In this document: positions 1-29,690 of the stretch, one piece after another | How the letters are laid out: every line of letters begins with the position of its first letter | Numbering within the stretch: position 1 is the first letter of the stretch | DNA from: Lachnospiraceae bacterium | GTDB taxonomy: Bacteria > Bacillota > Clostridia > Lachnospirales > Lachnospiraceae | Direction of reading: 5' to 3' | Assembly (NCBI GenBank): GCA_045531905.1 | Contig: JAZSEY010000020.1 | Span: forward strand, 82,020-146,019 | DNA length: 64,000 bases | Made by a program: the position numbers and the translations under genes | The notes under the pieces: generated by a model | Databases searched by the model: none | What the model was told of the DNA's origin: nothing | What the model saw: the letters and a program-made list of their open reading frames with translations, nothing else

Positions 1-1554
1 GACCCAGAGGGTACAATTATCACAGATGGTGTGGCCATTACCGGAGAGCCAACTTTCTCAAAAGAACCAGTAGACCAAAATGGTCAAACTGTAGTTATGG
101 TGCTGGTTACATTTACAGATGATACGGGAGCTTCCTTGACAAATGTTCAGGTGAAAAAAGGAGCTGATTTAAATCTTGCAGATGTTAAGATTTTAGCTGC
201 AGATGGTGTAACAGATTATGCTATATCAAAACCAGGGTATGTGCTTTCTTGGAAACACACTCAAACTACATATGCCACAACAGAAATAGTTGCAAACATA
301 ACAGATGCAATTACCTTGCAGGCTGTTTGGACATTCATTACTTATCCGATAGAACAGGCTGTGATTTCTGATATCGCAAACCAGACATATACAGGCGCCG
401 CATTGACACCTAAAGTTACTGTGACCTATGATAGTAAAACTTTGTTGCAGGATACTCATTATACTGTGACTTATAGTGACAACGTAAATGCAGGAACTGC
501 CACGGTTACTATTTCTGGCTTGGGAGCATATGTGGGAGCTGTTCAGAAGACCTTTGCAATTTTGCCAAAGAGCATTTCAAGCATGAACGCAAGTCTGTCT
601 GCTGACACATTTGCCTATACCGGATTGGAGATAAAGCCAGAGGTTACATTAACAGATGGAAACACTACATTGGTACGTGATGTGCATTATACTGTAATCT
701 ATACCAATAATATCAATGCAGGCACAGCAACAGCGGTGATTGTGGGTAAAGGAAATTATACAGGACAGATTACATTAGCATTTACAATTTATGAAGTGGT
801 TACAACGGTGGATATCGCTGATGTGGAGATTAGTGAAATTGCAGACCAGATTTATACAGGTAAACCGATAACACCATCACTTGTACTCTCATATAACGGT
901 ACTGTTTTGACACAGGGTGTGGATTATGATGTGCAGTATACAAACAACGTAAATGTTGGTGAGGCTACGGTAACAATTATTGGTAAGGGTGATTTTGTTG
1001 GCAGTACAGAGGAAACCTTTGACATCATCATCAAAAAGAATAAGAAGTATACAAAGGGTAACTATCAGTATCAGATTACCAGTGCAAAAACAAATGGCAA
1101 GGGGACGGTACAATTAGTAAAATGTGTGAAAAAGTCCAAGACTGCAAATATTGCAGCTACTGTCAATATTGGTGGTGTGAATTTTAAGATTACAAGTATA
1201 AAGGCAAATGCATTTAAGAATAATAAGACTATGACAAAACTTGTCATTGGAAAAAATGTAACCACGATCGGAGATAAGGCTTTCTATGGCTGTACAAAAC
1301 TAAAAAATGCAACCATTGGGTCTGGTGTGAAGAAGATTGGCAAGCAGGCATTTTACAATTGTAAGGCAATGAAGAATCTTGTGATTTCTACATCTAAATT
1401 GAAGACCTCTGCAATTGGTTCTAAGGCATTTACAAAGATGGGTGCAAGCAACTATAAGAAGTTAGTAGTGAAGGTGCCAAAGAAGCAACTGTCTGCATAT
1501 AAGAAGATGTTGAAGAAGAAAGGTTTATCATCCAAAGCCAAAATTAAAAAATAA
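1..1554 (+). CDS. Cell-surface protein, 5'-truncated at window edge. It has four or more tandem ~85-aa Ig-like repeats and a C-terminal BspA-type leucine-rich repeat region.
   Basis: The frame is open from nt 1 with no upstream stop. Repeated blocks of the form YTG..TP.VTV.Y..TL...DYTV.Y.NN.NAGTATV.I.G.GNY.G recur. The C-terminus has LRR_5-like repeats (KLVIGKNVTTIGDKAFYGC, ATIGSGVKKIGKQAFYNC). The tail is lysine-rich. Confidence 0.7.
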   Translation, partial: DPEGTIITDGVAITGEPTFSKEPVDQNGQTVVMVLVTFTDDTGASLTNVQVKKGADLNLADVKILAADGVTDYAISKPGYVLSWKHTQTTYATTEIVANITDAITLQAVWTFITYPIEQAVISDIANQTYTGAALTPKVTVTYDSKTLLQDTHYTVTYSDNVNAGTATVTISGLGAYVGAVQKTFAILPKSISSMNASLSADTFAYTGLEIKPEVTLTDGNTTLVRDVHYTVIYTNNINAGTATAVIVGKGNYTGQITLAFTIYEVVTTVDIADVEISEIADQIYTGKPITPSLVLSYNGTVLTQGVDYDVQYTNNVNVGEATVTIIGKGDFVGSTEETFDIIIKKNKKYTKGNYQYQITSAKTNGKGTVQLVKCVKKSKTANIAATVNIGGVNFKITSIKANAFKNNKTMTKLVIGKNVTTIGDKAFYGCTKLKNATIGSGVKKIGKQAFYNCKAMKNLVISTSKLKTSAIGSKAFTKMGASNYKKLVVKVPKKQLSAYKKMLKKKGLSSKAKIKK

Positions 1555-1566
1555 GAGTGTAATAAT

Positions 1567-2472
1567 ATGGATTACGAACTAAGGGAAGTAAAACTAGAAG
1601 ATTATGATATGTTAAAACGGTATTTTGCTTTGAGACGTCCGGGTACTTGCGAGAGTGTGGTTACGGACATCTATCTGTGGCAGATATATTATCGGGCAAA
1701 ATACTTTTTAACAGAGACAGGATTAATATGGATATATAAGACAGATACAGAGGTGTTCACAGTAACACCTCTGTGTAAGCGTGAGGATTTGCGTGAAAAT
1801 GTAGAGATTGCACGGAACTATTTTCAGAATGTGTTGCATGTACCATTTACCATGTATTTGGTAGACGAAGAAGCAATTGAAACGCTGAATTTGTCTGAGG
1901 AGGCGTATGCAGTGGAAGAAGAACGGAGCTATTTTGATTACGTCTATGATGCGAATGCTCTCCGTACACTTTCTGGCAAAAAGTATCACAAGAAGAAAAA
2001 TCATGTAAATGCTTTTTTGAAGGCTTATGAGGGGAGATATCAGTGTCGCATGTTAAACGGACACGATATTGAAACTGTAGTAGATTTTATTGAGCGTTGG
2101 CATGCCGGTCGCGAGATTGACGACCCATACCACCGTGATGAATACGAGATTAAGGGAATAGAGTATGTGCTTCGCAATTGCCGTCTGATAAAGTATCAAA
2201 TGTTTGGTGTGTTTATTGATGGACAAATGGAAGCATTTTCCTTGGGGACCTACGATAAGAAAATGAAGATTGCATATATTCATGTGGAGAAGGCAAATCC
2301 TGAAATCAGAGGGCTTTATCCATTTGTGAACCAGCAGTTTTTGATTCAGGGATTTCCCGAGGCGGAGCTTGTGAACAGAGAGGATGATATGGGATTGGAA
2401 GGGCTTCGCAAGGCAAAATTATCCTATCATCCGATTAGATTGGTTAAGAAATATACAGTGAAAGAGAAATAG
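1567..2472 (+). CDS. Hypothetical protein. It may have a DUF2156-like acyltransferase fold, but this is not certain.
   Basis: A 301-aa ORF packed 12 nt after the upstream gene. No diagnostic motif was recognised. The next gene is a GNAT. Confidence 0.55.
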   Translation: MDYELREVKLEDYDMLKRYFALRRPGTCESVVTDIYLWQIYYRAKYFLTETGLIWIYKTDTEVFTVTPLCKREDLRENVEIARNYFQNVLHVPFTMYLVDEEAIETLNLSEEAYAVEEERSYFDYVYDANALRTLSGKKYHKKKNHVNAFLKAYEGRYQCRMLNGHDIETVVDFIERWHAGREIDDPYHRDEYEIKGIEYVLRNCRLIKYQMFGVFIDGQMEAFSLGTYDKKMKIAYIHVEKANPEIRGLYPFVNQQFLIQGFPEAELVNREDDMGLEGLRKAKLSYHPIRLVKKYTVKEK

Positions 2473-2477
2473 ATTTC

Positions 2478-3167
2478 ATGATTCGATATTTGAATCCTGA
2501 TGAACGTCAGGATATTAGACAACTTTATGAGGAAGTCTTTCAAGATAGTAAAGCATTTGTGGACTATTATTTTGAAACTTATGTGAAGCAGCATACCCGT
2601 TGTTTGGTCTATGAACAGGATGGTCATATCTGTGGTATGATTTCTATTCATGAAAAGCAGTGGTGCTATCGGAAATTCGATGGCACTTATGAGTTGCGAC
2701 CTGCCTGGTATTTGTATGGAGTTGCAACGGTGCCGAATATGCGAAAACAAGGGATAATGGGAAAACTGTTAGCACGTATCATAGAGGATGCCACAGCAGA
2801 ACAGATACCGTATATTTATTTGATACCTGTGAATCCTGCCATATATGAAAAGCATGGCTTTCGATTGGTGAGTGGTATGGAAGGTGCGGGAACAGCGATG
2901 ACGATACCATTTGAAATGCCGAAGTTAGATATAAAAAATACATCTGAAAATGACTTGACAAAATTGGCAGAGAATTACCGAAGGTATTATGAAGAGCAAA
3001 ATGTGGATGCATTTCTCTATAAAGATGTAGATTGTTTTAGGGATTATATAACACAGCTTTTACTGGATGGTAACAGTGAGTTTACACTTTACGCTCATCC
3101 GGTAATGATTTATGACAACAAGTATGGGATGAAGATAGAAACACTTGGTCCCATGGACGAGGTATAG
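2478..3167 (+). CDS. GNAT family N-acetyltransferase
   Basis: An acetyl-CoA-binding-like motif is present (VPNMRKQGIMGKLLARIIEDA, matching the R/Q-x-x-G-x-G/A pattern). Confidence 0.6.
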   Translation: MIRYLNPDERQDIRQLYEEVFQDSKAFVDYYFETYVKQHTRCLVYEQDGHICGMISIHEKQWCYRKFDGTYELRPAWYLYGVATVPNMRKQGIMGKLLARIIEDATAEQIPYIYLIPVNPAIYEKHGFRLVSGMEGAGTAMTIPFEMPKLDIKNTSENDLTKLAENYRRYYEEQNVDAFLYKDVDCFRDYITQLLLDGNSEFTLYAHPVMIYDNKYGMKIETLGPMDEV

Positions 3168-3176
3168 AAAGGACGA

Positions 3177-3368
3177 ATGGATATGGCAAATATGTCGACA
3201 AATTGCGAGGATTGCATGTATTACGAGTATGATGAGGAATTTGAATATTATGTCTGTGGTATGGATTTAGACGAGGACGATACTGCCAGATTTTTGTCGG
3301 GACAACCATTTCAGTGTCCTTATTATAAATTTGGTGATGAGTACCAGATTGTAAAGCATCAGATGTAG
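3177..3368 (+). CDS. Small acidic cysteine-containing hypothetical protein (63 aa)
   Basis: A short ORF packed tightly between neighbouring genes. It contains the pairs C..C and VCG...QCP and is very acidic. Confidence 0.4.
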   Translation: MDMANMSTNCEDCMYYEYDEEFEYYVCGMDLDEDDTARFLSGQPFQCPYYKFGDEYQIVKHQM

Positions 3369-3370
3369 GA

Positions 3371-4543
3371 ATGGAGAATACTATGGCGAATCACAAGAAA
3401 AAAACATTATGCCCGATTGCATCAAAATGCGGTGGTTGTCAGTATCTGGATGTTCCTTACGAGGAGCAGTTGGCAAACAAGCAAAAGTATTTGCAAAAAC
3501 TGCTTGGTGCTTATGGCACAATTGAACCGATTATAGGGATGGAAAATCCATGGCATTATCGTCATAAGGTGCATGCTGTTTTTCACCACAACCGTAGAGG
3601 TGAAATCATATCCGGTGTCTATGAAGAGGGCACGCACCATGTGTTGTCGGTGGATACCTGTATGATTGAACATGAAAAGGCAGATGCCATTATTAGAACT
3701 ATTCGCAAACTGTTAAAGTCCTTTAAGATTACAGTACATAACGAGGATACGGGATATGGTATTTTAAGACATGTGCTAATTCGTATGGGACATAATAGTG
3801 GTGAGATTTTAGTGGTGCTTGTAACCTCTACACCGATGTTTCCATCTAAGAAGAACTTTGCAAAGGCATTGTTAAAGGAGCATCCGGAGATTACAACTGT
3901 GGTGCAGAATATTAACGAAAAGCGCACTAGTATAGTGTTAGGCACTCGCGACCAGGTTATTTATGGAAAGGGCTATATTGAGGATACCCTTTGTGGAAAG
4001 ACCTTCCGTATTTCGCCACAAAGTTTTTATCAGGTGAATCCGGAACAAACCGAGCATTTATACAATAAAGCAATTGCTTTTGCCAATCTAAAAGGGAATG
4101 AAGTGGTGCTGGATGCCTACTGTGGAACAGGTACAATCGGTATCATTGTAAGCGACCATGTGAAGGAAGTGATTGGCGTGGAGCTTAACAAGGATGCGGT
4201 AAAAGACGCCATTATCAACGCAAAACGAAATAATGCCAAGAACGTCACATTTTATAATCAGGATGCAGGAAAATTTATGTTGAATTTGGCTGCTCAAAAC
4301 AAATCTATTGACGTGGTAATTATGGACCCACCACGTTCCGGCAGCGATGAAGCTTTTCTAGGTTCTGTTCGAAAACTGGCACCGAAAAAGGTGGTATATG
4401 TATCTTGTGGACCGGAGTCACTGGCGCGGGACTTGAAGGTGTTGACAAAAGGTGACATGTATCGCGTAGAGAAAATGGGAGCAGTGGATATGTTTCCGAT
4501 GACCAGAGGGATAGAGACTGTGGTGTTGTTGGAGAAACAGTAA
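3371..4543 (+). CDS. 23S rRNA (uracil-C5)-methyltransferase, RlmD/RumA (TrmA) family
   Basis: There is an N-terminal Cys cluster (CPIASKCGGCQY). The SAM motif is DAYCGTGTIG, and the catalytic region contains DPPRSG and VSCGP. Confidence 0.85.
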   Translation: MENTMANHKKKTLCPIASKCGGCQYLDVPYEEQLANKQKYLQKLLGAYGTIEPIIGMENPWHYRHKVHAVFHHNRRGEIISGVYEEGTHHVLSVDTCMIEHEKADAIIRTIRKLLKSFKITVHNEDTGYGILRHVLIRMGHNSGEILVVLVTSTPMFPSKKNFAKALLKEHPEITTVVQNINEKRTSIVLGTRDQVIYGKGYIEDTLCGKTFRISPQSFYQVNPEQTEHLYNKAIAFANLKGNEVVLDAYCGTGTIGIIVSDHVKEVIGVELNKDAVKDAIINAKRNNAKNVTFYNQDAGKFMLNLAAQNKSIDVVIMDPPRSGSDEAFLGSVRKLAPKKVVYVSCGPESLARDLKVLTKGDMYRVEKMGAVDMFPMTRGIETVVLLEKQ

Positions 4544-22294: not shown

Positions 22295-22342
22295 AAATAT
22301 AAAGGGATAGATTTACAAAGGTAAATCTATCCCTATTTTTTA
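22295..22342. terminator. Bidirectional terminator between convergent genes
   Basis: AGGGATAGATTTAC-aaag-GTAAATCTATCCCT is flanked by an A-run upstream and a T-run downstream. The minus-strand gene's stop codon abuts it. Confidence 0.6.
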
Positions 22343-24244
22343 GCGTTTCTTCTTTACCACACTGCTGAATTTTCCAGCATATGTTTTGTCAGATTTCCAA
22401 AATGCTCTTACTTTATAGTAGTATGTCTTTCCTTTTTTTGCCTTTTTGTCGGTGTAGGTGAGTTTTCCATTTTTGACGGTGCCAATCTTTTTGTATGTTC
22501 CATTTTTGGATTCTGCACGATATACTTGATAACCGTCAGCACCAAAGGTAGCAGACCAGGTAAGCTTAAGACCACCACTTGCTTTCTTGACTTTCAAACC
22601 AGTAACATTGTTGTTGGTTGGTCTGGCAATCATGACATTTCCCATCTGCCAACCAAAGTATTTATTCCTAGCTACGGTTACGCAGGTGGCATTACCCTGA
22701 TACATATCTACATGATAAATACCCATAAAACGACCATTATTCGCACCAGTTTCAAATACTAAATCACCCGGCAACAATTTGCTGGTATCCACGGTTCCAG
22801 AGTAAATCATATATCCGTTTTCTACACACCATTTTGCCATGTCGGCAGCAGTAGGTGCCCAATTTTTGTTTGGTCCCACATAAGTTTTTCCAGATGCATA
22901 AGAACGCCATACAAAAGAACTACAATCATAATATCCATCTTGCATACGTTTAGCCTGAGAGTATGTAGAATCAAAATGCTTTCTTGCGTAAAGTAAAGCT
23001 GTTACGGCTTTTTTACTGGTAACACCCACGCGGTAGGTCAGTACTACATCTCCGACAGTTGCTGTAATGTTAGTTTCGCCAAGCCCCTTGGCTTTAATTT
23101 TGCCAGACTTGCTAACAGTAGCAACCTTTTTATCATCTGTGACATACTTAACAGTATCTGTTGACTTCACACCTTTGATGGTTAGTGTAACCGTTTCCCC
23201 TTTTGCCATGACAATCATACTGTTACTGCACCAGGTTTTCATGCTTTCATCGCAAATAGAGCGTTTGTGTCGCTTAAAATACAACTTGCGGACATCTACG
23301 GAAATGGTCATCGTTTTGCCATCCACAATTAGTGTGATGGTATAGTTACCGGTTTTCTTTGGATATAAATACAATGTAGCGGAGGTTTCTCCGTACCAAA
23401 TACTTGGTTCGTTGCACAATAAGTTTTCACTGGATGAGGTTAACTGAATTGTAGAGTCATCACAAATTCCTGAAAGTGTAATGGAATTATTATCGCAACT
23501 ATAACTACCATCTTCCATTTCCCAGGCGTTATAAATGTTTAAGCCAATTACAGATTTGTCCAAAACTGGATCTGTGATTGTATAATGTGCCGTTCCAGTT
23601 GCAGTTCCGCCATAAATATCTGTAATGGTTGCCGTAATGGTTACTTCTCCAGTGCTGATACCAACAATATTTCCCATGGCATCAACAGATGCGATTGTTG
23701 GATCTGAACTAGTCCACTGTACCGCGGAGATACGAGTAGGATCTGTGAAAGGTAATGTAGTCGTTATATCCTTTGCAATAATGTAGGATGATTCATTCCA
23801 TGTGATTAAGTCGCTACAATCTAGAGTTAGCATGAAAGTAACATCGATAGGGTAGTACTCATTATTTTGGAAAGTATAAGCATAAGTTTGTCCTGCTGTC
23901 AATTCATAGGTCATAGTCATAGAATAATCAATAGAGTTGCTACAGTTAGAGCCGACGTAGAATTCCTGACCAGTTGTGGTATCTACTAAGTCCAAGTAGC
24001 CCCAAACCTCACCAGTTGCGGTAGCGTTTAATATGTAAGTTCCGGTTGCTGTAGGGGTAAAGTAGTAGGTTTTTGAATCATAGGAATAGGTTTCATAATC
24101 ATACCCTGTGAGAGTGATGGTATGAGTTTGTCCAAGTACCAGATATTCCATTGCCTCTCCTTCAGCAAAGGCATAGGAAAACGTACTCATAACAAGCAGT
24201 AATGTAAGAAAAAATGTTTTCAAAACTCGTTTCATTCTGTTCAC
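22340..24244 (-). CDS. Secreted multidomain cell-wall hydrolase carrying Big_2 Ig-like domains, an NlpC/P60 catalytic domain and a C-terminal Fn3-like domain
   Basis: A signal peptide is present. The Big_2 motif is SAVQWTSSDPTIASVDAMGNIVGISTGEVTITATI. The NlpC/P60 catalytic Cys sits in YYDCSSFVWRSY, with His in IYHVDMY. Confidence 0.7.
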   Translation of the reverse strand: MNRMKRVLKTFFLTLLLVMSTFSYAFAEGEAMEYLVLGQTHTITLTGYDYETYSYDSKTYYFTPTATGTYILNATATGEVWGYLDLVDTTTGQEFYVGSNCSNSIDYSMTMTYELTAGQTYAYTFQNNEYYPIDVTFMLTLDCSDLITWNESSYIIAKDITTTLPFTDPTRISAVQWTSSDPTIASVDAMGNIVGISTGEVTITATITDIYGGTATGTAHYTITDPVLDKSVIGLNIYNAWEMEDGSYSCDNNSITLSGICDDSTIQLTSSSENLLCNEPSIWYGETSATLYLYPKKTGNYTITLIVDGKTMTISVDVRKLYFKRHKRSICDESMKTWCSNSMIVMAKGETVTLTIKGVKSTDTVKYVTDDKKVATVSKSGKIKAKGLGETNITATVGDVVLTYRVGVTSKKAVTALLYARKHFDSTYSQAKRMQDGYYDCSSFVWRSYASGKTYVGPNKNWAPTAADMAKWCVENGYMIYSGTVDTSKLLPGDLVFETGANNGRFMGIYHVDMYQGNATCVTVARNKYFGWQMGNVMIARPTNNNVTGLKVKKASGGLKLTWSATFGADGYQVYRAESKNGTYKKIGTVKNGKLTYTDKKAKKGKTYYYKVRAFWKSDKTYAGKFSSVVKKKR

Positions 24245-27279: not shown

Positions 27280-28239
27280 CTATATAAATAGGTGCTTCTG
27301 CCTCCGCAATCGCATTTTTACCTGTTCTAGGAACCGTTCATTGCCGAGTACCTCTATCATAGGTCCGAAGGCGAGTATTTCGATTAGGAGTTCTGTTTCC
27401 ATTTTCTGATTATAGTAGATGAGACACTCATAAGTGTTGTCATCTATTTTTTTTGTGTTCTTTTCGTAATTGGCAAATTGGAGCATGGCACGTTCTAATG
27501 CATTTCTATCGTTGTGGATTAGGAGTCTGACTGGCTCCTTATAGTAACTTTCTCGAATACTTTTATTGATGTCCGGTAATTTGTCAACGTATTCTTCTAG
27601 TAGGGCAACTTCTTTCATGCGGTCGAGATTGAGAATTTCAACCCGTGCTAAATTGTCTCCCTTTACTGTGCCAAGCAGACGGAACTTGTCATTTTTGATG
27701 GAATATTCTAACCGGCATGGCAGATAATGATGATGTACCCGATGATGTAGTTTTGACTCATACGAAATATCAAGATATTCACGCTTTTCGATTGCTGTTA
27801 TAATGGTGCGAAAATGCCGAATATAGTCAGCGTCCTCGTAAGGGTCTCTATTGGTGTAACGGTCATAATAGTAAAAGTCCCCAGTTTGCCATAAAGGCAC
27901 GACATCTTGAAATATCTGCAACAACGCTTCTATATCTGCTGTATCTAGGAATAATGGCATTTTGGAATCTAGAAGAATTGTTTTTATATATGCTTGTTGT
28001 AACTTAGTAAGTGGTACATAAAAGTTCTCGGACAGCTTGGAAACATAAATATCATCATCCCGGTGAAAGAAATCCCATTCACCCTGAGTTAATTTTGGAA
28101 TCAGGTAAAGCAGGCTTTCTTCGTAGCCATCATTCTCAATCCGAAGGCGCAAATCTTCCAAAGAGATGGCAGAGTTATCCTGTAATATGTGTTTCATAAT
28201 CTGATAATAGCAATTATAGATTTCTGAGAATAATTCCAT
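27280..28239 (-). CDS. Hypothetical protein that may contain a WYL domain
   Basis: A 319-aa protein. The segment PCRLEYSIKNDKFRLLG....ARVEILNLDRM loosely resembles the WYL core (WYL...R.FRLDRI). Confidence 0.4.
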   Translation of the reverse strand: MELFSEIYNCYYQIMKHILQDNSAISLEDLRLRIENDGYEESLLYLIPKLTQGEWDFFHRDDDIYVSKLSENFYVPLTKLQQAYIKTILLDSKMPLFLDTADIEALLQIFQDVVPLWQTGDFYYYDRYTNRDPYEDADYIRHFRTIITAIEKREYLDISYESKLHHRVHHHYLPCRLEYSIKNDKFRLLGTVKGDNLARVEILNLDRMKEVALLEEYVDKLPDINKSIRESYYKEPVRLLIHNDRNALERAMLQFANYEKNTKKIDDNTYECLIYYNQKMETELLIEILAFGPMIEVLGNERFLEQVKMRLRRQKHLFI

Positions 28240-28256
28240 TCTGTGTTCCTTTCCAG

Positions 28257-29489
28257 TTAGATGTCATACATGGCAAACATCGTTTCCATATCATGATTAA
28301 AGGTTTTTTCTAAACACTTAGAATCACATTCCAATTTGAGAATGCGTCCTGTAAATGTCCGAATCCACGGAAGCATTTCGCCACTGTCAAAAACTTCCGT
28401 CTCAAAGGTGTAGGTGTCAGGGGCAATTTTGGTAATCCTGCCACCCTTTCCTTCCCGTTCTAATCGCTCAACAATGTGCATTTCTGAGGATTCCCGTATA
28501 TGTAATGTCAGTTTGATTTTTTCTGTGTGAGTATTTCCGCTGTTTTGAAAAGTAACGCCCCATAAATATCTATGGTTTCTATGTAGAGACTCTCTAAGTT
28601 CGTCATAGTTTTCCGAAACTTCCAGCATAATAACCTCTTTGACGGCATCTAGACGAAGACAGGTGAAATGTCTGGTGGTTGTCAGATACATACATAAAAA
28701 ACGTCTTCCGGTTCTGGTGCTGGTAAATATTTGAAGTGGAACGCCCATCATCGTGCTTTCCTGCCCACTCTTTGAACCGCGAATCATGGTACGGATATAC
28801 CTCTTTTTTTGTATGGCTTCCAAAATAACAAGTAATACCTCGTCCTCCAGAGTATGAGCAAAGAAGCTATGTTTTACCCGAAAAGTATCATTTTGGGCAG
28901 AAAGATTATCTAAAATCGTGTTGCCAATGATACCAAAGGGCGCACTGATTTGATAGTGCTTGAGGGCGGCAATCAGCATAGGATATTTCGCTGCCACATC
29001 TGCAAAGTCAGACTCTTTAAAGTAAAGCAAATCTTTTCCGGACTTTTCTTTTCTTAGAAGTCCTTCTTTCGCATAGGCATTGCATTTTCGGCGAACGGTC
29101 TGCACATCAAATACCACATCGTAAGTATTCAAGATTCCATCCGTCAGTTCTTCTGCTGTGAAACCTTCATCATAAGACAGATAATCCAGAATATAAAAAT
29201 GCAATAGGATATCATTGTCTGTAAAACTTTTCGTCTTCCATACGCGATATAAGGGATTGGTGTCTAATAAGTTGCTGTCGATGGCAAGAGAAATGTTTTT
29301 TCCTTTTTCGGTGTAGTCCTGTTGCACAAATTCACCGAGCCAACTTTCCAAACGGCGACGTTCGTTGTCGTAGGTTCTGGCACTTTTTCCTTTGAATTCA
29401 TCTCGTGTCTTAAATCCATATACAAAGAAGTCACGGACATATTCTCTTGTTTTTGGGAAACTTTTAATTAGTTCTTTAAATTCAGACAT
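28257..29489 (-). CDS. Hypothetical protein that may be an HTH-WYL-type regulator. It is divergent from rtcB.
   Basis: A 410-aa protein. The N-terminal region has HTH-like character (KSARTYDNERRRLESWL). A central segment, GRRFLCMYLTTTRHFTCLRLDAVKEV, resembles the WYL motif. Confidence 0.4.
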   Translation of the reverse strand: MSEFKELIKSFPKTREYVRDFFVYGFKTRDEFKGKSARTYDNERRRLESWLGEFVQQDYTEKGKNISLAIDSNLLDTNPLYRVWKTKSFTDNDILLHFYILDYLSYDEGFTAEELTDGILNTYDVVFDVQTVRRKCNAYAKEGLLRKEKSGKDLLYFKESDFADVAAKYPMLIAALKHYQISAPFGIIGNTILDNLSAQNDTFRVKHSFFAHTLEDEVLLVILEAIQKKRYIRTMIRGSKSGQESTMMGVPLQIFTSTRTGRRFLCMYLTTTRHFTCLRLDAVKEVIMLEVSENYDELRESLHRNHRYLWGVTFQNSGNTHTEKIKLTLHIRESSEMHIVERLEREGKGGRITKIAPDTYTFETEVFDSGEMLPWIRTFTGRILKLECDSKCLEKTFNHDMETMFAMYDI

Positions 29490-29690
29490 ATGGGACTCCT
29501 TTCATTGGTATTGCTTCATTATAACACAAATGTGCAAAAAACAAAGAAACAACCATTTCGATATTTTTTGTGTTCGCAACTTTTTTGAAATGCAAATTTT
29601 TCCAATAAGGATTATGATGACAACATCACAGAGAACAACTGTGAAAGCAACACGAACATTGCACACGTAAAAAGAAGGAGGGAGAAGACA

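Follow-up and report, generated by a model that had tools for sequence, protein, structure and literature searches.

A candidate heteromeric WYL-domain activator of an rtcB RNA-repair operon in Lachnospiraceae

The 64,000-nucleotide (nt) stretch of Lachnospiraceae DNA analysed here (the window; assembly GCA_045531905.1, contig JAZSEY010000020.1, positions 82,020 to 146,019 of the forward strand) contains an operon that begins with the RNA ligase gene rtcB and continues with a tRNA-like RNA and an SPFH/Band-7 gene. Two consecutive minus-strand genes, coding for proteins of 410 and 319 amino acids (aa) and called A and B below, are transcribed divergently from this operon. (Table 1; coordinates in the table and in the text are positions in the window.) The open reading frame (ORF) listing agreed exactly with this layout as it had been described in an initial annotation, and placed A and B 17 nt apart. 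The same annotation had noticed WYL-like motifs in the two proteins and had suggested that they are a PafB/PafC-like pair regulating the RNA-repair module in place of RtcR, the regulator used in Proteobacteria. Since 2330 homologues of A and 2093 of B were found at E ≤ 1e-3, both are genuine genes and not chance ORFs. Identity within the best 120 homologues of each protein was 58-97%. The named homologues were from Lachnospiraceae, and some were titled 'WYL domain-containing protein'.

Table 1. Genes, predicted domains and promoter elements of the locus. (wHTH, winged helix-turn-helix; AF2, AlphaFold2; pLDDT, predicted local distance difference test.)
Feature	Position	Strand	Evidence
Gene B, 319 aa, predicted wHTH-WYL-WCX regulator subunit	27280..28239	-	ORF listing, homologues, PADLOC, AF2, Foldseek
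B residues 224-318, predicted WCX domain	27286..27570	-	conservation 0.79
B residues 137-217, predicted WYL domain	27589..27831	-	Pfam WYL 142-212, E 0.12; AF2 pLDDT 80-97
B residues 6-67, predicted wHTH, moderate confidence	28039..28224	-	AF2 pLDDT 58-73
Gene A, 410 aa, predicted wHTH-WYL-WCX regulator subunit with N-terminal extension	28257..29489	-	ORF listing, homologues, PADLOC, AF2, Foldseek
A residues 295-407, predicted WCX (ferredoxin-like) domain	28269..28607	-	Pfam WCX 324-380, E 0.25; AF2 pLDDT 84-96
A residues 214-291, predicted WYL (Sm-like) domain	28617..28850	-	Pfam WYL below threshold; AF2 helix and five strands, pLDDT 79-92
A residues 91-158, predicted winged helix-turn-helix	29016..29219	-	AF2 H-H-H-beta-beta, pLDDT about 85
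A residues 1-90, N-terminal extension containing KSARTYDNERRRLESWL	29220..29489	-	conservation; AF2 pLDDT 33-64; no Pfam match
Asymmetric 21-nt box, proposed A/B operator, window copy TTCGCAACTTTTTTGAAATGC	29573..29593	+	k-mer counts, conservation, synteny
-10 hexamer TATGAT of the rtcB promoter	29613..29618	+	stack of 79 promoters
rtcB RNA ligase gene, 410-aa ORF, first gene of the operon	29691..30923	+	Pfam PF01139, E 3e-110
Conserved non-coding RNA region, tRNA-like (YrlA-like) core 31046-31143	30946..31183	+	Rfam YrlA, nhmmer
SPFH/Band-7 gene, last of the operon	31453..32551	+	Pfam Band_7, E 1e-28; listed ORF starts at 31322
Bidirectional terminator hairpin closing the operon, perfect 13-bp stem	32563..32594	.	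terminator scan

Pfam detected the WYL domain in both proteins below threshold: the matches (A, residues 217-286, E 0.14, profile positions 1-68 of 70; B, residues 142-212, E 0.12) scored 12.6-12.8 bits, the cutoff being 21.8, and covered 68-69 of the 70 profile positions. The WYL-like blocks of the initial annotation were located within the WYL domains (GRRFLCMYLTTTRHFTCLRLDAVKEV, A 261-286; PCRLEYSIKNDKFRLLG, B 174-190; ARVEILNLDRM, B 198-208). The signature is degenerate: in place of FRLDRI it reads LRLDAV in A and LNLDRM in B. Conserved in the WYL domain of A are STRTGRRF, R279, D281 and K284. The WYL model of PADLOC, which spans WYL and WCX, gave significant matches (A, 3.7e-6; B, 9.6e-11). 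NCBIfam returned no family match for A or B, and a search of all PDB chains, including PafB/PafC (9fnd, 6sj9), by phmmer and profile hmmsearch gave no WYL match at E ≤ 10. The profile searches of the PDB came out empty because the alignments of A and B are too shallow (Neff, the effective number of sequences, about 2.2), and comparison of structures was the only productive route.

AlphaFold2 models built on 120-sequence alignments reached a pLDDT of 73.9 for A and 82.4 for B. When these were compared with the PDB by Foldseek, each model gave 32 matches at E ≤ 1e-3, and 63 of the 64 were full-length wHTH-WYL-WCX regulators. The families matched by both models were DriD, PafB/PafC, BrxR, CapW and WYL1. 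DriD was the best match of either protein (E about 1e-11), and for A the top matches were DriD and PafBC (E 1e-11 to 1e-9). The lone exception, 9fso_F, a chain of a human RNA polymerase III complex, was the weakest match of A (E 7e-4). Below the WYL regulators the matches of both models fell sharply to noise. The A model also matched the winged helices of MecI/BlaI/F93. By their modelled structures both A and B are class A WYL regulators (wHTH-WYL-WCX), and the fold suggested by the initial annotation was thus borne out by PADLOC and Foldseek, with Pfam WYL and WCX staying below threshold. Both models contain a C-terminal, predicted ferredoxin-like WCX domain, which in A was detected by Pfam below threshold. 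The topology of both models includes a winged helix (H-H-H-beta-beta), a putative DNA-binding domain. In B the secondary structure elements of this domain are H6-20, H27-36, H40-51, E58-61 and E64-67.

The most conserved region of either protein is the N-terminal extension of A (residues 1-90; mean column identity 0.91, as compared to 0.69-0.76 for the other A domains). Canonical WYL regulators do not have such an extension. Pfam searches with the isolated N-terminal segments, residues 1-90 of A and 1-80 of B, gave no match; a weak match to MarR_2 (E 0.024) was obtained for A 130-153. The segment which the initial annotation had taken for HTH-like (KSARTYDNERRRLESWL, A 35-51) lies in this extension and outside the winged helix, so this detail of the annotation had to be corrected. 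In B the wHTH is the least conserved domain (0.66) and the WCX the most conserved (0.79).

The conservation of the pair was studied in 80 species-representative Lachnospiraceae loci recovered with a B profile. A was directly upstream of B in 76 of them. BLASTP detected no significant similarity between A and B, and hhalign paired only their WYL blocks, weakly (E 0.013). Judged by their sequences, A and B are very divergent paralogues. Searching 1.8 billion cluster representatives with an A profile yielded 1599 clusters. Among the best 150 of the clusters formed at 50% identity, nine carried a complete A and, behind it, a complete B in one polypeptide of 728-855 aa (hmmsearch). With one of these fusions as query, at least 22 further fusion clusters (90% identity; 769-898 aa) were found. 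The fusion clusters came from NCBI, ENA and Logan assemblies, some of them from many contigs, and the fusions are uninterrupted ORFs in the standard code. The fusion loci keep the gene context and the promoter box described below, ahead of rtcB or of a unit consisting of the RNA and the SPFH gene. In PafBC of Arthrobacter, Kocuria and Thermobifida, tandem WYL paralogues are likewise fused naturally (PMC6789036). Side by side in 76 of the 80 loci, naturally fused elsewhere and associated with an asymmetric box, A and B probably work as one heteromer, for which this is good though indirect evidence.

The neighbourhood of the pair was equally recurrent. An rtcB orthologue (72-83% identity) was divergent from the pair and within 10 kb in 59 of the 76 pair loci. 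In eight others the divergent gene was DUF2828/DUF7788 without rtcB, and in two only the SPFH gene was present; in four DUF2828 or rtcB was found beyond the other side of the pair, and in three the flank was too short to tell. The immediate divergent neighbour was rtcB or DUF2828 in 50 of the 76 loci, and an SPFH gene followed rtcB in 29. Two types of operon could be distinguished: (i) rtcB, tRNA-like RNA and SPFH, as in the window, and (ii) tRNA-like RNA(s), DUF2828 and rtcB. The genes inserted between the pair and rtcB in other loci code for PadR-like regulators, membrane proteins or a large surface protein. The DUF2828 protein has a vWA-type C-terminal domain (weak VWA_2 match). We take it to be Ro-like, an assumption that a search of PDB sequences did not confirm (no Ro60/TROVE match). 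Within the window no CARF/AAA+ gene of the RtcR type adjoins rtcB. The synteny thus agreed with the initial annotation, and its suggestion of a WYL pair in place of RtcR fits the locus, the regulatory link being derived by comparison of genomes.

Counting of k-mers in the 300 nt upstream of A revealed an asymmetric box of 21 nt (also written TTCGCAACTTTTTTGAAATGA). Read toward the target gene it is [T/C]TCGCAACTTTTTTGAAATGA, and the family consensus ends in A. The box is present once in the 64-kb window (0.03 copies expected by chance). When up to two mismatches were allowed, 73 of the 76 pair loci contained it, and it was absent from all four loci that have B but not A. It was always directed at rtcB or at the tRNA-like RNA plus DUF2828; its median distance was 80 nt from the rtcB start codon and 360 nt in the case of tRNA-like RNA plus DUF2828. 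The box tracks the targets and not the regulator genes: it stands beside rtcB even if the latter is up to 6.6 kb from A, it lies beyond B, in reversed orientation, if the targets are there, and a locus with several target units (two or three) has as many boxes. The possibility that the box is part of an RNA leader was rejected on the grounds that it is located upstream of the -10 and moves with the targets, not with gene A.

An exact 20-mer of the box was also used to scan a metagenome collection. It occurred in 71 stretches, nearly all with the same context. The first gene downstream was rtcB in 29, DUF2828 in 25 and SPFH in six; of the remaining 11, ten had a downstream flank shorter than 1.5 kb. 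At least one of A and B was present in 50 of the 71 stretches, and 15 of the 21 stretches without them had less than 1.5 kb of sequence upstream. The exact box was kept even where A and B shared no more than 35-38% identity with their counterparts in the window (L133 and L151; L numbers denote loci or stretches of relatives compared with the window).

The geometry of the promoters was derived from an ungapped stack of 79 sequences, in which the conservation of the -10 was read column by column. Fourteen positions of the box were identical in all sequences. A TAnnnT hexamer, mostly TATAAT, TATATT or TAGAAT, followed exactly 19 nt after the box in 79 of 79 promoters; counted from the start of the box, T41, A42 and T46 were 100% and A53 was 91% conserved. 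The latter A, 7 nt past the hexamer, is the likely transcription start, which in the window is predicted near 29625. The box then reaches from about -52 to -32, which places it over the -35 position. At the canonical spacing of 17 nt there is only ATGAT(A/T), and a scan with consensus promoters found no canonical -35/-10 pair on the plus strand at the rtcB promoter. TTGAAA within the box was considered as a -35 and rejected, its distance from the -10 being 22 nt. The dyad symmetry of the box is limited to TTC-N11-GAA. A promoter-like site for gene A (29596-29623, minus strand; TTGTCA-16-AAAAAT with TG) overlaps the -10 region of rtcB. Transcription from this candidate would start inside the box, a hint of autoregulation; the site is known from its fit to the consensus alone, and relatives do not conserve it.

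From these comparisons we infer that A and B probably form a heteromer which binds the box and activates rather than represses, and that its signal may be RNA damage. On this reading, which we favour, they would be a ligand-activated wHTH-WYL-WCX activator of the regulon of rtcB, tRNA-like RNA and SPFH, functionally analogous to RtcR. A and B would supply the two different subunits of a single factor with the build of PafB/PafC. This factor would recognise the non-palindromic 21-bp box in a promoter of the sigma-A type which has an invariant -10 and lacks a proper -35. When a nucleic-acid-derived ligand binds to the WYL/WCX module, the factor would recruit or adapt RNA polymerase, and in this way a small RNA-repair regulon would be switched on (rtcB, tRNA-like RNA and SPFH in the window; tRNA-like RNA(s), DUF2828/vWA and rtcB in relatives). 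In Lachnospiraceae the pair would then correspond to RtcR, the sigma54/CARF activator. Activation is proposed because the box is placed at a fixed 19 nt from the invariant TAnnnT, lies over the -35 position, and is not accompanied by a canonical promoter. DriD-dependent promoters, as seen by cryo-electron microscopy, have their site over the place of the missing -35, with a constant spacing to a good -10 (PMC13004042), and PafBC-dependent promoters have a factor-specific motif instead of the -35 (PMC11804915). In PafBC the motif is read by PafB, PafC contacts region 4 of sigma, and the difference between the subunits explains why the site is non-palindromic (PMC11804915, PMC6789036).

The nature of the ligand is a separate question. 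To bind single-stranded DNA (ssDNA), PafBC requires a pair of arginines in each subunit, R211/R214 in PafB and R201/R204 in PafC (PMC11804915). In the motif alignment, A keeps the first arginine of FRLDRI (R279) and has Ala for the second; B has Asn for the first and keeps the second (R207). Other conserved basic residues are R259, R262 and R263 in A and R167, R176 and R187 in B. The complementary loss would fit a ligand site that is shared or has changed. By analogy with RtcR, a signal of RNA damage is attractive. It is conceivable, though we regard it as doubtful, that A/B is the first WYL transcription factor to sense RNA damage and not ssDNA. It might be triggered by cleaved tRNA or by pieces of the tRNA-like decoy RNAs that its own regulon encodes, possibly ending in 2',3'-cyclic phosphates. 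The two subunits would then each provide one half of a re-tooled ligand site (LRLDAV in A, LNLDRM in B), and the invariant N-terminal extension of A would serve to read the box or to touch RNA polymerase. Such a factor would have evolved independently in Gram-positive gut bacteria as an equivalent of RtcR that depends on sigma-A.

PafBC is the closest known parallel. It resembles the pair in consisting of two tandem paralogous wHTH-WYL-WCX genes, in occurring as single-chain fusions in some lineages, and in having a non-palindromic motif that replaces a proper -35; its structures 9fnd and 6sj9 were among the top structural matches. The PafBC-like tandem pair of the initial annotation therefore found support in the WYL fold, the natural fusions and the non-palindromic box at the target operons. 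Nevertheless, A and B are not orthologues of PafB and PafC, to which they have no detectable sequence relationship. PafBC is actinobacterial and has pup-proteasome and DNA-repair neighbours, whereas A/B occurs in Firmicutes beside RNA-repair genes. The RecA-NDp motif is at -26, the A/B box at about -52 to -32 and of another sequence. A differs by its additional conserved N-terminal extension of 90 aa, A and B have diverged from each other much further (hhalign E 0.013), and in the motif alignment each retains a single Arg of the RxxR pair. The WYL activator DriD, which responds to ssDNA in Caulobacter crescentus, is similar in being the best Foldseek match and in having its site over the place of the -35, with a constant spacing to the -10. 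However, it is a homodimer controlling an SOS-independent DNA-damage regulon, in contrast to the unlike pair, the asymmetric box and the RNA-repair regulon described here. With RtcR, the sigma54-dependent CARF/AAA+ regulator of rtcBA in Proteobacteria, the pair would share the role of a nucleic-acid-sensing regulator divergent from an rtcB operon. RtcR acts on a -24/-12 promoter, whereas the target of A/B has a -10 of the sigma-A type, and neither A nor B matched CARF or Sigma54_activat in Pfam and NCBIfam. In Salmonella the rtcB operon under RtcR control also holds tRNA-like Y RNAs (PMC7790460, PMC4012209).

Several observations weigh against a heteromeric activator responding to RNA damage. 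PafBC responds to ssDNA, and single-stranded RNA (ssRNA) does not activate it (PMC11804915); an RNA ligand would be without precedent among WYL transcription factors. The WYL regulators BrxR and CapW, which are encoded beside their own targets, are repressors. The box is assigned to A/B by co-occurrence, and a factor encoded elsewhere could bind it. In four of the 80 loci (L009, 4622-5602; L031; L057; L081) an orthologue of B (52-66% identity) was present without A, box or nearby rtcB. (In L009 it is downstream of an unrelated 441-aa protein.) Residues 1-90 of A were modelled poorly (pLDDT 33-64), neither protein falls into a curated Pfam or NCBIfam family at threshold, and neither has a sequence match in the PDB. 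Mutual information between positions 1, 7 and 15 of the box and residues of A and B was scattered and confounded by phylogeny, and was not used.

The same box could serve A/B as the site of a repressor of the BrxR/CapW type, sitting on the -35 region and released when a ligand binds to the WYL domain. We consider this unlikely, but it is the alternative that deserves most attention. BrxR and CapW have the same three-domain fold, are encoded beside the genes they control and were among the structural matches, and WYL proteins beside stress or defence genes are often repressors (PMC11888443). CapW senses ssDNA and leaves the DNA upon binding it (PMC11662680). A protein bound over the -35 position could block RNA polymerase. 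On the other hand, the target promoter has no usable -35 and no detectable canonical form, as is usual where a promoter needs an activator, DriD for example, and the closest structural matches, DriD and PafBC, are activators. BrxR and CapW are homodimeric repressors of phage defence (BREX and CBASS), whereas here an unlike pair and an asymmetric box are associated with an RNA ligase module. The operators of BrxR and CapW are palindromic.

It is improbable that the box belongs to an unlinked regulator or a specialised sigma factor, with the WYL pair a mere neighbour and its proximity to rtcB a lineage-specific accident. The link between box and pair is correlative, about a dozen loci have 1.5-6.6 kb of unrelated genes between the two, and six metagenome stretches contain the box and at least 1.5 kb of upstream sequence but neither A nor B. 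However, A or B was present in 50 of the 56 stretches with enough flank, which adds to the co-occurrence in the pair loci (73 of 76, as against none of the four loci with B only). The link survives rearrangements, gene fusions and a drop of protein identity to 35-38%. No other regulator was consistently found in the pair and fusion loci compared, and the -10 is a standard TAnnnT, not one of the extracytoplasmic function (ECF) type. Least probable of all, to a degree that we would hardly expect it, A and B could be RNA-binding accessory proteins that modulate RtcB directly, like WYL1 of type VI-D CRISPR: the regulon does encode tRNA-like RNAs, the Sm-like WYL and ferredoxin-like WCX folds are typical of RNA-binding proteins (PMC6789036), and WYL1, which binds ssRNA (PMC6547453), was among the structural matches, but these matches were weaker (E 1e-5 to 1e-3) than those to transcription factors (E 1e-11), winged helices are predicted in both A and B, the pair is transcribed divergently from the module and not within it, and an invariant DNA box at a fixed promoter geometry calls for a DNA-binding factor.

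To our knowledge, the control of RNA-repair operons is known only for the proteobacterial RtcR. The WYL transcription factors compared here respond to DNA damage or control phage defence, and the sole heterodimer among them is the actinobacterial PafBC; if a heteromeric A/B activator is confirmed, the locus offers a second, independent heteromeric WYL factor. The almost invariant 21-bp promoter box at rtcB and DUF2828 operons was newly found in this work. In the literature searched there was no paper that links WYL regulators to RtcB operons, although an earlier mention by Burroughs and Aravind in 2016 is possible. These authors reportedly described modules of RtcB, tRNA-like RNA and SPFH, and modules of Ro-like (TROVE) proteins and Y RNAs. 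The regulated genes described here fit these modules; the regulator and the operator are the present finding. The near-invariant operator, the promoter geometry and a compact regulon (RtcB ligase, tRNA-like RNAs, SPFH or vWA scaffolds) are concrete handles in bacteria that are abundant in the gut. With them it becomes testable what signals RNA repair in Firmicutes, and whether the WYL domain of a transcription factor can read RNA.

In the target operon of the window, the core of the RNA region matched the Rfam YrlA family with 38.4 bits (E 5.5e-6), short of the gathering score of 69. In the whole window neither Rfam at the gathering threshold nor ARAGORN detected anything; the RNA was found only by applying an E-value threshold. 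Its T-arm is GGTTCGATTCC and its D-arm GTAGCTCAGTGGGTAGAGC, and the region was conserved in 31 related loci (nhmmer). The SPFH gene is likely to start at the ATG at 31453, which follows a GGAGGA ribosome-binding site and is more plausible than the listed start at 31322, and this leaves more room for the RNA. The terminator hairpin scored on both strands and lies between the SPFH gene and a 420-aa ORF (32574-33836), whose product, judged by eye, has the look of an iron-containing alcohol dehydrogenase.

The relatives showed several variations of the regulon. In operons of the DUF2828 type the box promoter is directly followed by one or two tRNA-like RNAs of 107-120 nt (73 nt in L133), for which the predicted transcript start is about 30 nt upstream. 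Examples are L021 (8343-8455), L026 (4437-4550), L040 (8398-8510), L133 (3914-3986) and L023, which has five copies; these RNAs pass the gathering score of the Rfam tRNA family. In five stretches (L008, L058, L085, L116 and L143) the box is accompanied by the tRNA-like RNA and an SPFH gene, and no rtcB was detected. Because they keep this combination without the ligase, the conserved core may be the unit of RNA plus scaffold. One of the three boxes of L023 (4153-4173) is followed by two tRNA-like RNAs and a gene for a type IA topoisomerase (1300-3486, minus strand; Toprim and Topoisom_bac, E 4e-98), which suggests that the regulon can include a topoisomerase. In L001-L004 and L021 there is a second RtcB paralogue of 377 aa (e.g. 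L001, 1375-3101), 28-31% identical to RtcB of the window. It is coupled to a release factor of the PrfH type (RF-1 domain), and this RtcB2-PrfH ribosome-repair module adjoins the DUF2828-rtcB operon of the WYL pair. Elsewhere in the window, and unrelated to the pair, a 634-aa secreted protein is encoded at 22340-24244 (minus strand); its translation, judged by eye, has a signal peptide, Ig-like repeats and a C-terminal region similar to NlpC/P60.

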